From IMG/VR virus record IMGVR_UViG_3300025882_000001: a DNA stretch of 64,000 nt, one strand, 5' to 3'. Origin of the DNA: a virus. Both the position numbers and the translations under genes were made by a program. The notes beneath the pieces are model-generated. The model ran no database searches. It was given only the letters and a program-made list of their open reading frames with translations, and was not told where the DNA came from. Of this stretch, positions 17,041 to 31,330 are shown piece after piece. Each line of letters opens with the position of its first letter. The first letter of the stretch is position 1.

Positions 17041-17237
17041 TTGTTCGCATTGAGAGCAAATACTGCTCGTCTTATAGTTCTTGTATCATAACGAGACTTA
17101 TTCGCCAAAACATGTCTGGCATAAGCAAGAACATCGTTATATCCAGCGGCATGTGCCTGCGCAGTGAAAGCACCTTCCGTTCCCTTCTCGGAAATGCTTT
17201 TTGCGGCTTTGGCAATCCAATTAGATTTCTTTGCCAT
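17037..17237 (-). CDS. Small basic protein (66 aa), possible DNA-condensing/virion protein
   Basis: NWIAKA...GAFTAQA...RAVFA pattern; very basic; coupled to terL. Confidence 0.6.
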   Translation of the reverse strand: MAKKSNWIAKAAKSISEKGTEGAFTAQAHAAGYNDVLAYARHVLANKSRYDTRTIRRAVFALNANK

Positions 17238-18733
17238 TAGTATCCTTCCTTTCCGGTCAAATCCCAGAATGTTGCAAACACTGGGTTTCTCCCAGCAATT
17301 TTTTCATTTCGTAGATAATTGTACAGATTTTCCCATGTATCTCCAGTTTCTGGATCAAGCGGAGTACTACAACCTGGAGTAGCATAACTTAAATCTTTTG
17401 CAAGTGCAACCATTCGTCCAGTACCAGAATGAAGAGCGTTTGCAAGTTGCTGAAATGGTTTAAGATATTGCGCCGAAACACCTTGAACACTGAGATATGG
17501 ATCATTTCTATCAAAGCTTCCTGGAACAACTAACTGGTATGATTGCTGATGTGCCTTGCTCCCGAATTTTTTTGTCCAATATTCTGCAGCTTCTGGATAA
17601 GTAGCCGGATTAAGCCAAGAATATTCTTTCCCGAAAAGTTGAAAAAAACCACTCTTTCCTGGTATTTCTGGATTTTTCTTGCCTCCGCTTCTTCGATCAT
17701 AATTTTGAATTTGTTTTGCAGTGAGAGGAACATATTCTTTCACGTCTTCCAAATTTCTTGCCTTTCCTGCAGTTGCAGCCGGAATTACTTGAATCTGTTT
17801 TCCGTCTGGAGAATAATAAATTGTTCCGCTTTTTTGCTCTTCGAGAATGAGTGGATTTCCTTTTCCATATCTATTCCTTTTAATCATACTGAGGACATAC
17901 TCTGTTATTTCCGGAGAAGCTCCAGCCTGCCGGAGTATTTGATAATTCATATTATCGATATCCGTAGTATCTGCAGACCTTGATTCTTTCCTGATACGTC
18001 GTATTTCTTCTTCTGAATGTCCACTTGTTGGAGCGAAAAGAGTATCTGTGAAAGAAATTTCTCTTCCAGGCATAGTTGCAGATTTCTTAGCAGGAGAAGA
18101 GGAGAAAGAAAGACTTTTTCGCAAATTTCCCACAGCATTGCCTAACCAATCTCCAGTATTTTCTATAGCTTCTTCAATCCAGTTTCCTGCTTTTTCTGCC
18201 GCATATGCTCCTCCAGCAATACCGCCACCAACTATCTTGGCAATCGTATCCCACACATTTTCTGCTCCGCTTTCCACAACACTTGGAACCCTTTCTCTCG
18301 CCTCTCCGGTGATTTTCCCAATTTTTTCAAATACATTTTGTGAAAGCGAAGAAGCCTCTCTCTCTACTTTGTCAGCAACATCTTCAATCCAACTTCCAAC
18401 ATTTGCTGTTCCTCGGTCATAAGCTGCAATTATTTCTTTCTTCCTTTGAGAAAACGAAGTTTCAGTTCTTGTTTTTTTTCCTGGAAGCTCTACATCCTTC
18501 TTTGGAGGAACATACGGTTCCGGTTCCGGTTTCCACACTGGAATTACTGTTTCTGGGTGTTTCTGAAGATAATTTCTGCGATTTACAAGTTTATTGAACT
18601 CCTGAGCACCGGAATCATACGAATGTGCAGCTCCTTCATAAGTACCTCCACCGACTCTATACATTCGGTTAATTATCTCCTGAAGTTGCTCTTTGGTAGC
18701 ATATTTCAAGAAATCTTTAGTTGGTCTGGGCAT
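17237..18733 (-). CDS. Hypothetical protein (498 aa), possible internal virion protein
   Basis: Long ORF with RBS AAGGAGG; low-complexity Gly/Ala/Glu centre. Confidence 0.7.
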   Translation of the reverse strand: MPRPTKDFLKYATKEQLQEIINRMYRVGGGTYEGAAHSYDSGAQEFNKLVNRRNYLQKHPETVIPVWKPEPEPYVPPKKDVELPGKKTRTETSFSQRKKEIIAAYDRGTANVGSWIEDVADKVEREASSLSQNVFEKIGKITGEARERVPSVVESGAENVWDTIAKIVGGGIAGGAYAAEKAGNWIEEAIENTGDWLGNAVGNLRKSLSFSSSPAKKSATMPGREISFTDTLFAPTSGHSEEEIRRIRKESRSADTTDIDNMNYQILRQAGASPEITEYVLSMIKRNRYGKGNPLILEEQKSGTIYYSPDGKQIQVIPAATAGKARNLEDVKEYVPLTAKQIQNYDRRSGGKKNPEIPGKSGFFQLFGKEYSWLNPATYPEAAEYWTKKFGSKAHQQSYQLVVPGSFDRNDPYLSVQGVSAQYLKPFQQLANALHSGTGRMVALAKDLSYATPGCSTPLDPETGDTWENLYNYLRNEKIAGRNPVFATFWDLTGKEGY

Positions 18734-19549: not shown

Positions 19550-19776
19550 GAAAAATTTTTAGGAAAGGCGAATAAGTTCCTTGTGGATACGCTTCGGGAG
19601 ATTCGGAAAGAAGTTGATCGGATTCTCAAAACATATTCCACACTTTGAGAAGATGAAATAACCCAGAGCATACCCAGGTCGAACGCGGATCGCTTTTGCA
19701 AACGCGGTTGACCTGCGTTGGCATCGCTGGTTGAGCAATTGCTTCCGGATTCTGAAATCGTTGAAGGAGGTGGAGC

Positions 19777-20088
19777 ATGGCTAGCTTCACAGTGTACACG
19801 TTCAAGACTACGGATTACGAAGAGAAGCCTGAGCTTTGGGATTGGGATGAAAATCGTCCGATCTCAAAAGAGGATTTGGAGCTTACGCAGTCTTCGTATG
19901 CTGAGTGTTGGGTTGCACCAGATGTTGATTTGTCCCAAAAGGGATGGATCAAGGTTCTGGATGCCGCTGGAAACCCTGTGGTATCTCAGTATGGGAACAT
20001 CCTTTGGGTGTTTCCGGAAGTTCGTAGAAGGAGACCTAAACCGTTCCCAAATAGGGCTCCGGGTCTTGATGCTGATGTGCCCTTTTAG
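19777..20088 (+). CDS. Small protein ending in DADVPF (SSB-tail-like); paralog of 22346..22663
   Basis: RBS AGGAGG; aligns by eye with the 105-aa ORF. Confidence 0.8.
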   Translation: MASFTVYTFKTTDYEEKPELWDWDENRPISKEDLELTQSSYAECWVAPDVDLSQKGWIKVLDAAGNPVVSQYGNILWVFPEVRRRRPKPFPNRAPGLDADVPF

Positions 20089-21067
20089 GGTGTGTCGTTG
20101 AGTGATAGTGCGGAGATCGTTTCGGTCTCCGCCTTGTTGCTATAACTCCTATCTGAGATGAGGAAGTCCGAGGAGGGGCTTCTTCGTCTCTTTTTTTTAA
20201 TCGCTCCGAAGAAGCAGTGGAATATGCCAAAAAACGAAAAATGAGATAGCTCTCGTGCACAATCGGAGTGGAAGCAGTATGAATACACTATTTCGATTCC
20301 ATTTGCTCCAGAGGGGCTTATTCTTTCGTTTTTGGAAGATTTCTTTTATTGAAGCGAATAAGCCTGTTGCTCTCTCCGGAGAGAAGGATGCTTTTTCGAC
20401 TTCTTCGAAAAGAGATGTCATCCCCTGGAAGAGTATTCCAGCAAAGAAAAGAAAAAAAAAGCATTTGTATTTAAAAAAAAAGAAAAGAAACGCTGGAGTC
20501 GTATGGAAGAGTATTCCAGCGAAGAAGTCTACTCTCTATGCTTTCCGACTGTTCGAAGAGAGTATTCTTCTTTCGGAGTAGAAGACTGGAGAAGTAGTCT
20601 TCTCTCCATCTAGAGAAGTAGTCTATTCTCTGAGAGAAGTAGAGAGAGAGAAGGCTTATTCGTATTCTTCTCAAATAGAGAAGACTGTTTCTTAGAGAAA
20701 GCGAATAAGTCTCTTCTTCTCCACTGGAATAGTAGTCTTCTCTCTGTTTCTAACTAGAGAGACTCTTCTTCTCTCTTTCTCTTTCTTTGGAGTATATACG
20801 TAGTATATACTCTTTCTTTCTCTGTTCTCTCTACTTCTTCTCGCGGTAGACTAGATAGAGTATACTACTACGCTATAGAAGTAGTAACGAATAAGTCTCT
20901 GTTATAGATATAGAGCTATAGAGAAGAAGAAGTAGCTTGAGCATCGCTTCCCAATAGGCTTCCTCGTCTTTTCCTTCGCTTTGAAGTAAAATAGTCTACC
21001 GAAGCAGTAAATGCTCAGTCAATTTCTCCCCGAATTCTTAATATTGAATTGCTGGAGGTAAGCAAAA
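20089..21067. other. ~1 kb non-coding control region with hairpins, GA/TC tracts and mirror repeats; candidate origin or genome end
   Basis: No credible ORF; repeated TGGAAGAGTATTCCAGC; palindrome 20790..20812; four CGAATAAG copies. Confidence 0.55.
21020..21036 (+). promoter_or_regulatory. Conserved early promoter-like motif, copy 1 (CAATTTCTCCCCGAATT)
   Basis: Same motif precedes the ORFs at 21068, 21743 and 22346. Confidence 0.6.
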
Positions 21068-22279: not shown

Positions 22280-22345
22280 TGTATCGTAAACAGTTTTCGA
22301 ATTCGTTTGCGATATAAATAAAGCAAAGTAACGAAGGAGGTTACG

Positions 22346-22663
22346 ATGTGCACGACAATTCACCTGTATCGAACAAATAGCCGGCGTGAAGAGCCAGTAA
22401 TTCGTTCGTTTGATCCGTTGAGCGTTCCAATCAGCGAGGAATTGCTTAACGATCCGCAACTCGGCAAATTCGCAAGAGCCGAGATTTGGATTGCCAAGGA
22501 TATTGACATGACTCCATTTGGTTGGAGTCGTGCCAAGAAAGCTGACGGAAGTTTCGTCAGTGAATCCGTCCTTGGCACAGTGAAATGGGAGTTTCCCGCT
22601 TCACAGCCGTTGGAACCGTTCCCAAGCAAACCGGTTCCAGCTGCAGAAGTTCCGTTTGCTTGA
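22346..22663 (+). CDS. Small protein ending in AEVPFA; paralog of 19777..20088
   Basis: RBS AAGGAGG; shared AE-x-W-x-A-x-D-x-D...GW...W-x-FP...PFP pattern. Confidence 0.8.
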   Translation: MCTTIHLYRTNSRREEPVIRSFDPLSVPISEELLNDPQLGKFARAEIWIAKDIDMTPFGWSRAKKADGSFVSESVLGTVKWEFPASQPLEPFPSKPVPAAEVPFA

Positions 22664-22670
22664 TCGTTTT

Positions 22671-22920
22671 GGAAGCGAAGAAGCCTAATGTCCGGAAAGA
22701 CTAGCGAAGTCACCGGAATATGCTCATTCGCTTCCTTATGTTTATCCTCCGATTGGCGATTTTTTGCGAATACGTGCTGCTTTGTTTCATTGATAGAGCC
22801 GTTTCAAAGCAGAGTATTCGCTTCCTGGGCAGCGTCTCTTCAGCTGTATGCCAGGCTGCTAGATGAGAGCAGTAAAGGCTCATCGAGGGCTTACCAAAGT
22901 GCCCATTTTATTTTTTTTAA
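22671..22920 (+). ncRNA. Candidate multi-hairpin intergenic RNA ending in a terminator-like element
   Basis: Stems 22671-79/22727-35, 22766-73/22814-21, 22777-84/22805-12, 22862-67/22879-84 and 22887-90/22901-04, then a T-run. Confidence 0.35.
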
Positions 22921-28906: not shown

Positions 28907-29520
28907 TCCCATCACAGACCGGATCTGGTGGACGTATTCAGTCCCCTGGAGAAAACAGAGGGTTTCTTATTGACGTAATCGATCACACTGCGGGAACAGT
29001 GTATGATGTAATACTAGATTTCATTTTCGGATTCGAGAATGTTCCAGAAAACTGGACAAGAAAGATGAGAGTTTTTGCCAAGTTCGACCGGAATATGAAT
29101 AACGAGATAGATCCAGAGAGCAAGGATTTGAAAAGGCTCTATCGTATTCTCCAGCAAATGGGTTTTACCCGAATTGAAGGCGGGAAACTCTCTGGAATCG
29201 GAGTCAATGAGAAGGGAAAATTCGTAGATGAGAACGATAGACCAATAAAGGACATAGCTGGATTGCTCAAGACACTTGGAAGAGATAAGTCGTATCTTGT
29301 CTATATCGCCAAGGATTCCAATGGCTATGACCGAGTAATTGGTGTAATCGATGAAGAGCTTAACAAAAGTAACGATGCTTTCGCTGTCATGATGCAAGAG
29401 AATTATGCATATTGGATTGAAAGAAGTTTGAAAGCGGAAGCTTCTGATACGCATACCGAAAAAGGAGGAAAATCAGAAAGTAGCAATGACGACCTGATAT
29501 ATGTTCCAAGAGGTGATTAA
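28897..29520 (+). CDS. Putative single-stranded DNA-binding protein (207 aa)
   Basis: Between Sak4-like ATPase and primase; beta-rich N-terminus and acidic flexible C-terminus. Confidence 0.5.
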   Translation: MPIIPSQTGSGGRIQSPGENRGFLIDVIDHTAGTVYDVILDFIFGFENVPENWTRKMRVFAKFDRNMNNEIDPESKDLKRLYRILQQMGFTRIEGGKLSGIGVNEKGKFVDENDRPIKDIAGLLKTLGRDKSYLVYIAKDSNGYDRVIGVIDEELNKSNDAFAVMMQENYAYWIERSLKAEASDTHTEKGGKSESSNDDLIYVPRGD

Positions 29521-29521
29521 A

Positions 29522-31330
29522 ATGAAGTATTATGAACTGGCACAATATCGGGCAAGTAATCGCAATAAACTTATCAGAGCGGAGGATGTTGCTCATGTCA
29601 TCCTTGAGAAGGGGACGCAGTGTCCCCTTTTCCGCTCGGTATTTTGGTACGATGAAGGAATCGTAGAATATCTCAAGACGAATAAGTCTGTGTCTATGTA
29701 TCGGGGTATCCGAGGGATTGATATGATTCCTATCGATATCGATAAGGGCTACAACAGCGATGAATTCACGCAGGAGAAGCTTCTAAAGTTTATAGAGAAA
29801 CTTGAATCTCTTGGACTGGATGAGAATATGTTCCAGATATTCTTCAGTGGAACTGGCTTCCATATCTTCTTAGATAATTCTCTCTTCGACTTCCAACCGT
29901 CAGTATTTCTTCCGGAGCAGATCGCACAGACGTTAGTGAACGCTGGATTGATAGATGATCCAGTAATCATCCGTGGCAACCAACTTATTCGCATAGAAAA
30001 TAGCTTGAACGAAAAGAGTGGTCTTTTCAAAATTCCTCTTACTTTGGAAGAAGCAAAGACTCTTTCTCTGGAAAAGATTCGAGAGCTGGCGAAGACACAG
30101 CGTCTGGATTTTCAGTATCTGGAGATGGATGGAAGAAACCTATTGGAGAAGTATATTATCCCTTCATATATGTTTGAAGAAGGAAGCAAAGTTGTTCCCA
30201 ATGGATGGAAGAAAGAAGACGATAACTTCGAAGTGAATAGATATGCAGTGTGTATTCAGAAGCTCTACGAGCGTGGAGCAGTAGAAGGAAATAGAAACAA
30301 TGTAGTAATGCGCATTGCTTCACATTGTAAAAGACAAGGAATGCCAGAAGATTTCGCTATTGCTGGAATGTTGCATTGGAATCATAAGACGAATCAGTCT
30401 TTGGATGACCAGCAGGTGATTGAAAGAGTACGGCAAGTCTATCGCAAACCGTATCGGTATGGTTGCAATGATGCAATTCTTAAAGAATTCTGTTCACCAA
30501 TGTGTCTATTCTATAAGCACAAGAATCTGGATGCCAATAATCTGATGAATCTTACCGATTTGGATAAAGCATTTGAAGAGCGTCTGCAAATTATAGAGAA
30601 TAAAGACCGCTATATCAACCTGAAAGACATCTTCGGACTGGAAGTCGATTGCGTATTGTATCCAGGAGAACTTGTTGTCTTCCAAGGAGATACCGGTCTT
30701 AATAAAACTAGTATCATCCAGAACATAATGTTGGGCGTGAATATGGTTGACGATGTAGTTCGTCCCAAAGGGCTTCAGACAATCTACTACGGAACAGAAC
30801 TCTCAGCTGGAATTATTCAGATGAGAAATTATTGTATTGTAACTGGTTATACTGAAAATGAAGTCATTAAGCACAGAGACGAACTCTACAAGTATCATAC
30901 CGCTCTGGAGCACATTGCAGTTCAGACTGGAATACTCACAACTTCTGGAATAGAGCAACTGATTCTTGATTATCAGCCACAGGTTCTGGTAATAGATTAT
31001 TATGAACAAGTAGAGCATCCAGCTTGGGGAAGAAGTCCATCAATTGCAGTAGCAGATATTGCCAAATCACTTTCAGTAATGGCGCAGAAGTATAATATCA
31101 TCTTGATTGCCATATCACAAATCAATAGAGCTTCTGCGAATAACAATGGAATTCATTCTGGTTTCGGAAGTGGTGCAGTAGAAAAGACTGCAAGAAGATT
31201 GTTTACTATATCTGGAGACCAGAATAGTCCTTATCGTATAATAAATCATGTCAAAGCAAATTCAGATGTTCTTTGGAAGAACGTCGTATTGGAGCGTCAA
31301 GACAATTGGCGCTTCAAGAGAATAAAATAA
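29522..31330 (+). CDS. AEP-type primase fused to an SF4 (DnaB/RecA-like) helicase; likely start 29522
   Basis: AEP motifs PIDID, FSGTGFH, IRIENSLNEKSG; PriCT-like GNRNN; Cys cluster C..C..C; helicase GDTGLNKT, VIDY, SQINR. Confidence 0.88.
   Translation: MKYYELAQYRASNRNKLIRAEDVAHVILEKGTQCPLFRSVFWYDEGIVEYLKTNKSVSMYRGIRGIDMIPIDIDKGYNSDEFTQEKLLKFIEKLESLGLDENMFQIFFSGTGFHIFLDNSLFDFQPSVFLPEQIAQTLVNAGLIDDPVIIRGNQLIRIENSLNEKSGLFKIPLTLEEAKTLSLEKIRELAKTQRLDFQYLEMDGRNLLEKYIIPSYMFEEGSKVVPNGWKKEDDNFEVNRYAVCIQKLYERGAVEGNRNNVVMRIASHCKRQGMPEDFAIAGMLHWNHKTNQSLDDQQVIERVRQVYRKPYRYGCNDAILKEFCSPMCLFYKHKNLDANNLMNLTDLDKAFEERLQIIENKDRYINLKDIFGLEVDCVLYPGELVVFQGDTGLNKTSIIQNIMLGVNMVDDVVRPKGLQTIYYGTELSAGIIQMRNYCIVTGYTENEVIKHRDELYKYHTALEHIAVQTGILTTSGIEQLILDYQPQVLVIDYYEQVEHPAWGRSPSIAVADIAKSLSVMAQKYNIILIAISQINRASANNNGIHSGFGSGAVEKTARRLFTISGDQNSPYRIINHVKANSDVLWKNVVLERQDNWRFKRIK

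Follow-up and report, generated by a model that had tools for sequence, protein, structure and literature searches.

The locus studied here raises the question of why an uncultured phage should keep a perfect A-rich mirror repeat in gene-free DNA ahead of its early genes, and whether the symmetry of this repeat is of any use to the phage. The window, that is, the whole 64,000-nt stretch of DNA that was analysed, wraps on itself (position 641 = 52539) and holds a phage genome of ~51,898 bp, and the sequencing runs that contain this phage come from activated sludge, digesters and wastewater. An initial annotation had described a homopurine mirror repeat bracketed by two identical GAGTA-loop hairpins and followed by related hairpins, and had read it as a supercoil-sensitive element that unwinds to expose hairpins to an N4-type virion RNA polymerase or to a primase. 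All of these elements were found in the window sequence at the positions given (Table 1).

The mirror lies in a non-coding hub. The TerL of the window phage is at most 27% identical to those of cultured phages, a similarity search of cultured-phage DNA returned no match to the hub, to the hub of locus L060 or to the L060 portal gene, and no Rfam family came near its gathering score for the hub stretch. A coding role for the ORF at 20255-20581, which runs across the element, was rejected because the strain indels are not multiples of three. A region of 821 nt in the hub is the most hairpin-dense place of the genome, with 18 perfect hairpins (stem of at least 5) vs. 8.5 +/- 3.1 in shuffled sequences, and AGAAG/CTTCT words that alternate in orientation account for much of this density. 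The hairpins reported to follow the mirror do exist, at 20555, 20589 and 20612, where they are part of chained, overlapping AGAAG/CTTCT inverted repeats. AGTA(G/T)TC words occur at 20432, 20510, 20561, 20593, 20617 and 20731, and the copies of the AGTAGTCT repeat unit, as read from their sequences, share no hairpin register.

Table 1. Positions of the features discussed, counted from the first base of the window.
Feature	Position	Strand	Remarks
Leftward block	from 19514	-	putative terS, 498-aa ORF, TerL, portal, other genes
498-aa ORF	17237-18733	-	between putative terS and TerL
Putative terS, 265 aa	18717-19514	-	
Rightward block	starts 19777	+	
Small gene	19777-20088	+	left of hub
Two terminator-like hairpins	20110 and 20155-20199		between small gene and hub
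Non-coding hub	20200-21060		~860 bp, from small-gene terminators to first early-gene box (21021-21038)
Left hairpin CTGGAAGAGTATTCCAG, CTGGAA-GAGTA-TTCCAG	20425-20441	+	strain-specific insertion, 3 of 15 contigs
Left arm GCAAAGAAAAGAAAAAAAAA	20441-20460	+	pyrimidines on - strand
Left core arm AAAGAAAAGAAAAAAAAA	20443-20460		exact mirror at 20473-20490
Spacer GCATTTGTATTT	20461-20472	+	tandem G-Y-ATTT unit
Right arm	20473-20492	+	exact mirror of left arm
Outer stem-loop CGCTGGA...TCCAGCG	20491-20521		stems 20491-97 and 20515-21; encloses right hairpin
Right hairpin TGGAAGAGTATTCCA	20504-20518		
Short-repeat field, lineage-specific	20555-20745		AGTA(G/T)TC words and overlapping AGAAG/CTTCT inverted repeats
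Hub centre	20778-20823		palindrome core GTATATACGTAGTATATAC (20792-20810) between mirrored pyrimidine arms TCTCTTTCTTT / TTTCTTTCTCT
Conserved box AATTTCTCCCCGAATTCT	21021, 21703, 22256		ahead of three successive early genes
First early ORF	21068		right of hub
Primase-helicase gene	29501-31330		8.5 kb from hub
Giant virion protein, 3346 aa	41708-51748		

Contigs from RNA libraries cover both flanks of the hub but hardly cover 20210-20915, a stretch that is itself variable between strains, and the RNA contigs of the upstream small gene end at 20087-20191, within the terminator zone. This sparse cover by assembled contigs points weakly to a hub that acts as DNA and not as abundant RNA, and on the same weak evidence an abundant non-coding RNA was set aside as the product of the hub. 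A contig of 461 nt from a single RNA run links 20191 back to 19761, suggesting a 431-bp unit, tandem or circular, that comprises the small gene and its terminator; close relatives carry other genes in the place of the small gene (19761-20191 area). A further repeated unit of ~80-100 nt (GTATGAATAC ... TTGCTCCAG ... TTTTCG), found at 20260-20345 in the window and at 1700-1890 in L003/L004, varies in copy number and has recombinant forms between strains.

The mirror is longer than first described, since its arms extend at their outer ends to 20 nt (GC...CG), giving an element of 52 bp; the core arms consist of A and G only, and the spacer is mixed. It is the sole mirror with arms of at least 10 nt and a spacer of at most 20 nt in the 51,898-bp genome, and the longest mirror arms in 20 Markov-1 genomes were 8-15 nt, mostly 9-10. 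The outer 12-mer, AAAGAAAAGAAA, is itself mirror-symmetric, so that the element is also a direct repeat of AAAGAAAAGAAA spaced by 36 bp; the whole is a true mirror, because the run pattern is 3/4/9 in one arm and 9/4/3 in the other. For two A-rich 18-mers with two G each, an exact mirror is expected by chance in about 1 of 150 cases, a low but appreciable frequency. The element might be neutral low-complexity DNA in a hypervariable spacer, with a symmetry that reflects chance and shared ancestry. A-rich tracts of two letters mirror-match more easily than ordinary sequence, and the element is confined to one species-level clade, whose members, as close relatives, share it by descent.

Comparison of strains bears directly on this neutral reading. 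The sample of the species-level clade comprised 15 contigs from at least 14 assemblies, gathered by DNA similarity, by TerL, and by a flanking pattern that did not include the mirror. The A-rich element is present in all 15, including all five of those found independently through TerL or DNA similarity, and only two alleles were seen, A9...T3/T3...A9 and A8...T4/T4...A8. Allele A (A9, GCATTTGTATTT, A9) occurs in 10 contigs and allele B (A8, GCATTTTGTATTTT, A8), in which both A-runs are one base shorter, in five. The two are separated by at least three mutations, and each is perfectly arm-symmetric and of the same total length; the covariation between the alleles represents a single event. The element is an invariant island amid dense insertions and deletions, with three right-edge variants located 13 nt beyond its edge. 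Neutral drift accounts poorly for an element that stays invariant in such surroundings, for a multi-step allele change that preserved both symmetry and length, and for the symmetric pyrimidine repeats of other phages, described below, whose differences are mirrored, and we regard it as improbable.

The flanking hairpins behave very differently from the element that they bracket. Four alternatives were found at the left edge, namely no hairpin, CTTAC-GTA-GTAAG, the TGGAAGAGTATTCCAG of the initial annotation (in the window, L009 and L048 only), and GGAGTCGTAT-CC-ATACGACTCC (L041). The right hairpin is swapped for GGAGTCGTAT-AG-ATACGACTCC in two contigs, and in L043 its stem is broken without compensation. 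Several of the edge indels are inverted copies of the adjoining sequence, i.e., palindrome-creating insertions. At 20425, the window also lacks ~165 bp that are present in most relatives. The left and right hairpins of the window belong to a 23-nt direct repeat (20426-20448 and 20504-20526; 22 of 23 positions identical, 78 bp apart), which is probably the edge of a partial 78-bp duplication. The scaffold of G001 has two copies of the element 155 bp apart with a gap between them, which fits a tandem duplication of a 78-bp unit, of which the left hairpin of the window would be a remnant edge. On the right side, the predicted minimum-energy fold is the outer stem CGCTGGA/TCCAGCG, which excludes the TGGAA/TTCCA hairpin. 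Hence, both of the supposedly identical bracketing hairpins are present in the window, but they vary between strains and the right one competes with an outer stem; being present, absent or replaced from strain to strain, they are not a conserved design. They may best be seen not as designed parts but as polymorphic by-products, left behind where a 78-bp stretch was partially duplicated and where palindrome-creating insertions arose at the edges.

The outer stem itself invites another explanation. On the - strand it is followed by TTTCTTTTCTTTTTTTTT, a terminator-like arrangement, and the right half of the element could be an intrinsic terminator for leftward transcription, with the stem CGCUGGA/UCCAGCG followed by UUUCUUUUCUUUUUUUUU, that insulates the packaging/late operon against transcripts coming out of the hub. 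The - strand RNA has a predicted fold of -9.8 kcal/mol (z = -3.2), and a U-rich stretch adjoins the stem on its downstream side; the stem is retained in strain variants with a replaced inner hairpin (L013), although it was within the retrieval pattern, so that its presence in the retrieved contigs is not independent. However, the 17-nt loop is atypical, a consensus terminator scan made no call, and neither the second U-run nor the symmetry is explained. No leftward RNA was seen among the RNA contigs, which are nearly absent over 20492-20915. We regard a terminator as improbable, too.

The proposal that the mirror opens the duplex as H-DNA, and that the GAGTA-loop hairpins then extrude as promoters of a virion RNA polymerase or as priming sites, was modelled on phage N4. 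Hairpin promoters of the N4 virion polymerase have a stem of 5-7 bp and a 3-nt loop and are extruded with the help of SSB. The window phage resembles N4 in having small hairpins in non-coding DNA ahead of early genes and a giant virion protein. In contrast to N4, the hairpins here have 5-nt loops, differ from strain to strain and are not placed before early genes, and the protein carries a two-barrel signature. The 3346-aa protein had no PHROG, Pfam or PDB hit, including to N4/T7-type polymerases, and no T7/N4-like (HDS-type) motif; its single DDDGD motif suggests that it may be a two-barrel polymerase. A distance of 550-640 nt separates the hairpins from the first early gene downstream, and strains that are 97-99% identical differ in whether they have the hairpins, which does not favor a role as promoters or priming sites. 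Nor is the element outstanding as an unwinding site: when the 51,851 windows of 48 bp are ordered from the least stable duplex upward, it comes 256th.

A different candidate for the early promoters is the conserved box AATTTCTCCCCGAATTCT, which stands ahead of each of three successive early genes and is not present in the hairpin field; these boxes are likely the early promoters. By eye, no promoter of the Bacteroidota type (TTTG ... TAnnTTTG) was found in the element. RNA and DNA contigs join 22254 to 21020 through the box, so that early-gene cassettes seem to be reshuffled at it, and similar CCCCGA boxes precede early genes in L025 and L058. The small early gene at 22346-22663 (window 22325-22750) stands out on RNA-library contigs for its k-mer depth, by far the highest at 135-1742 vs. 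10-60 for its neighbours in four metatranscriptomes.

In favor of the hairpin-promoter proposal, gp66, a virion polymerase of the crAss type, uses single-stranded or denatured DNA as a template but duplex DNA hardly at all, and no motif for early promoters was identified for this enzyme (bioRxiv 10.1101/2020.03.07.982082). Given this template preference, a pre-melted entry site would not be absurd for a two-barrel virion enzyme. The crAss-like phage phi14:2 likewise has long non-coding stretches that head early genes at its leading end, together with a two-barrel virion polymerase, but its regions are highly transcribed, whereas RNA-library contigs hardly cover the hub (10.1101/2020.03.07.982082). 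A link between the hub palindrome and a giant polymerase was also considered and rejected: the RNA polymerase core matched none of five records carrying the 19-bp palindrome, and G003, a palindrome-carrying phage that was read whole, has no giant protein. Taken together, with a polymerase that is not of the N4 type, hairpins that come and go in near-identical strains and can be broken uncompensated, a different conserved box ahead of each of the three early genes, a palindrome-carrying phage without the polymerase, and nearly no RNA cover over the region, this proposal can be given very little credence.

Beyond the clade, the hub could be compared in two relatives at 63-64% TerL identity, L025 and L058 (from a MAG), whereas the group at 84% TerL identity falls outside the comparison, since none of its contigs extends to the hub. 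Both relatives keep the architecture of a small + strand gene with a terminator, then 700-900 gene-free nt with short repeats, then a central palindrome between CTTTCTTT tracts, a CCCCGA-type box and the early genes. The repeats differ by lineage, being AGTAGTCT in the window, GTACTATGC in L058 and TACGCTAT in L025. The A-rich mirror is missing from both, and a search of IMG/VR found the mirror pattern confined to the clade; the element is therefore lineage-specific, and it must be dispensable for the core function of the hub. Conservation in relatives, which the initial annotation had named as a check, thus extends to the symmetry of both alleles throughout the clade but not to relatives at 63-64% TerL identity.

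As for the host, a 99%-identical phage contig (L057 = G001 contig 236) was binned in a Flavobacteriales MAG, and L058 in a MAG labelled Saccharibacteria; such binning gives a lead but is not proof of a host. The motif CGA(A/G)TAAG(T) is present in 40 copies in 51.9 kb vs. ~6 by Markov-4 expectation (e.g., at 20355, 20655, 20702, 20888, 17097 and 19569), in every frame and on either strand, with antisense orientation to genes favored ~2:1, and eight of the 26 copies of CGAATAAG are intergenic. It also occurs in relatives at 84% TerL identity, and those at 63-64% are enriched for (C/T)GAACAAGT instead. As a possible host motif, CGAATAAGT showed no enrichment in the phage-holding MAG outside phage-like contigs.

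What the distant relatives do share is the centre of the hub. The palindrome core GTATATACGTAGTATATAC is identical in L058 (63% TerL identity) and was found in 52 IMG/VR contigs (loci L059-L107), of which 48 lie outside the clade. Its carriers include several phage groups that are unrelated in their proteins, and the core almost always lies between T/C-rich tracts. For example, G003, a complete phage of 65 kb that carries the 19-mer, has only an endolysin-like protein in common with the window phage. In 39 of the 48 non-clade contigs, a perfect pyrimidine-only mirror starts at a distance of 14-39 nt past the palindrome; its arms measure 12-23 nt and its spacer 5-7 nt, and nine different arm sequences occur. 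All nine have asymmetric run patterns and are therefore true mirrors, and none contains adjacent C. For at least seven of the nine, a reading as a single simple tandem repeat in two phases is impossible, and differences between close relatives in the pyrimidine arms are mirrored in both arms. In the rest of the same loci (455 kb), only two mirrors of at least 12 nt were found, both of mixed bases, and a further 181 kb held none. That nine arm sequences should differ and yet always be symmetric after the same palindrome argues that mirror symmetry is selected. On its - strand the A-rich mirror has the sequence TTTCTTTTCTTTTTTTTT ..., which closely resembles the pyrimidine arms seen elsewhere, whereas its spacer of 12 nt (allele A) or 14 nt (allele B) is longer than their 5-7 nt. 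In the family to which the window phage belongs, pyrimidine arms (TCTCTTTCTTT / TTTCTTTCTCT) stand on either side of the palindrome.

The hub probably serves replication initiation or packaging; a role in early transcription is also conceivable. In an alternative reading, the mirror is incidental, and the element acts as a spacer that is AT-rich and intrinsically bent or easily opened, within an iteron site bound by protein; this site would be an origin used by the primase-helicase or a pac/cos site of the terminase. Here A-tract phasing and fixed length would matter, and the two A9 runs start 21 bp apart, i.e., two helical turns. In the lambda ori and the SPP1 pac, repeats occur together with a palindrome and with bent or AT-rich DNA. 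The hub likewise has lineage-specific repeats on either side of a conserved palindrome in three lineages, and an element whose length is the same in both alleles. It also lies 0.7-1.5 kb upstream of the putative terS and its TerL-portal operon, so that, in its repeats, AT-rich or bent segment, central palindrome and nearness to packaging genes, it is similar to SPP1 pacL-pacC-pacR and to lambda cosB with its IHF bend as well as to lambda ori. Repeats and a palindrome close to the putative terS would suit a packaging site; an origin used by the primase-helicase would likewise agree with the repeats, the pyrimidine tracts and the AT-rich palindrome.

As a lead only, the 265-aa protein can probably be assigned as the small terminase: it stands directly before TerL in L058, and its language-model features resemble small-terminase (Terminase_2-type) clusters. 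The 498-aa ORF between the two in the window, which is 616 aa in L025 and missing in L058, looks like an insertion because of this absence.

An iteron site, however, leaves unexplained both the joint change of the two arms between the alleles and the perfect mirroring of nine different pyrimidine arms. In lambda and SPP1, mirror symmetry is not known to play a role, and in contrast to those systems the hub, known from sequence alone, has no initiator gene adjacent to it, the replication genes being 8.5 kb away. Lineage-specific repeats do lie by the element, but it is not the least stable duplex of the genome. The assembled contigs yielded no mapped genome end, the contig ends of relatives scattering over 19.5-26.7 kb; the 19-mer loci are not located at contig ends either. 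GC skew was rejected as an indicator of an origin, being uninformative because it tracks gene orientation in the window and in G003. An incidental mirror within an iteron site is therefore possible but, in our view, rather unlikely.

In light of these comparisons, we hold, tentatively and at somewhat less than an even chance, that the 52-bp A-rich element is an H-DNA motif kept symmetric by selection within the ~860-bp control hub upstream of the early genes. Copying from a template gives rise to direct or inverted repeats and not to mirrors, which argues for a selected symmetry. To our knowledge, the sole reader of such symmetry is the pyrimidine-purine-pyrimidine triplex. PMC12214015 gives H-DNA formation as the only firmly established property of homopurine-homopyrimidine mirror repeats, and describes long mirrors in the human genome as arising by tandem-repeat expansion. 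Such expansion fails as an explanation for most of the pyrimidine arms. The part of the initial annotation that supposed a functional non-B-DNA element of the H-DNA type thus gains from the symmetry of both alleles and from the analogous pyrimidine mirrors in 39 of 48 contigs, and loses from the absence of the mirror in relatives at 63-64% TerL identity.

From these patterns we infer how a triplex might form and act. Negative supercoiling would arise in circularised phage DNA and behind rightward polymerases that start from early promoters at least 530 bp downstream, and would allow the T-rich strand of one half to fold over and pair with the purine strand of its partner half, in T.A.T triads with a few isolated C+.G.C triads among them. 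Such a triplex would absorb supercoils, leave half of the purine strand single-stranded and block polymerases. Transcription-driven negative supercoiling extends ~1.5 kb upstream of start sites, and H-DNA stalls polymerases and destabilises neighbouring DNA (PMC11667243). The element, 530 bp upstream of the rightward promoters, is inside the range of this backward supercoiling (PMC11667243), and stalling and instability would explain the indel scars at its edges.

The element resembles known H-DNA motifs (PMC11667243; PMC12214015) in its purine-only arms and exact mirror symmetry, in being T.A-rich with isolated G/C, which favors T.A.T triads near neutral pH, and in the clustering of indels at its edges, as expected of a polymerase-stalling, instability-prone motif. 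By contrast, the known long motifs are mostly expanded simple tandem repeats of eukaryotes, whereas this one, for which sequence is the only source, is short, non-tandem and phage-borne, with a mixed spacer of 12-14 nt and a symmetry that appears to be maintained by selection.

Several features weigh against H-DNA. The spacer is long for such a structure, and long A.T runs are stiff and reluctant to form it. Further, the element is 330 nt away from the palindrome, and its strand is opposite to that of the pyrimidine mirrors in other phages; it may therefore not be the same module. It is nevertheless plausible that the A-rich mirror is the form that a selected H-DNA-type module takes in this lineage, within a hub that acts at the level of DNA.

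A broader and rather speculative reading, which we think unlikely but worth stating, is that a widespread group of uncultured phages with unrelated proteins shares a hub of two supercoil-driven non-B-DNA devices, a conserved 19-bp AT-rich palindrome (potential cruciform) and a homopurine/homopyrimidine mirror (potential H-DNA) in which compensatory changes preserve the symmetry. The A-rich mirror would then be one version of the mirror device and would work as a torsion-sensing switch, opening DNA for replication or first transcription. If true, it would provide the first evolutionary (covariation) evidence of H-DNA as a selected functional structure in a virus. H-DNA is mostly viewed as a by-product of repeat expansion and a source of instability, and positive evidence of selection on it is scarce; here, symmetry is kept through sequence change, in two alleles of one element and in nine arm variants beside the same palindrome elsewhere. 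The comparison also corrects the N4 analogy and marks out a conserved, previously unannotated cis-acting hub in phages without cultured relatives, and it makes directly testable the question of whether any genome uses a DNA triplex as a working part.
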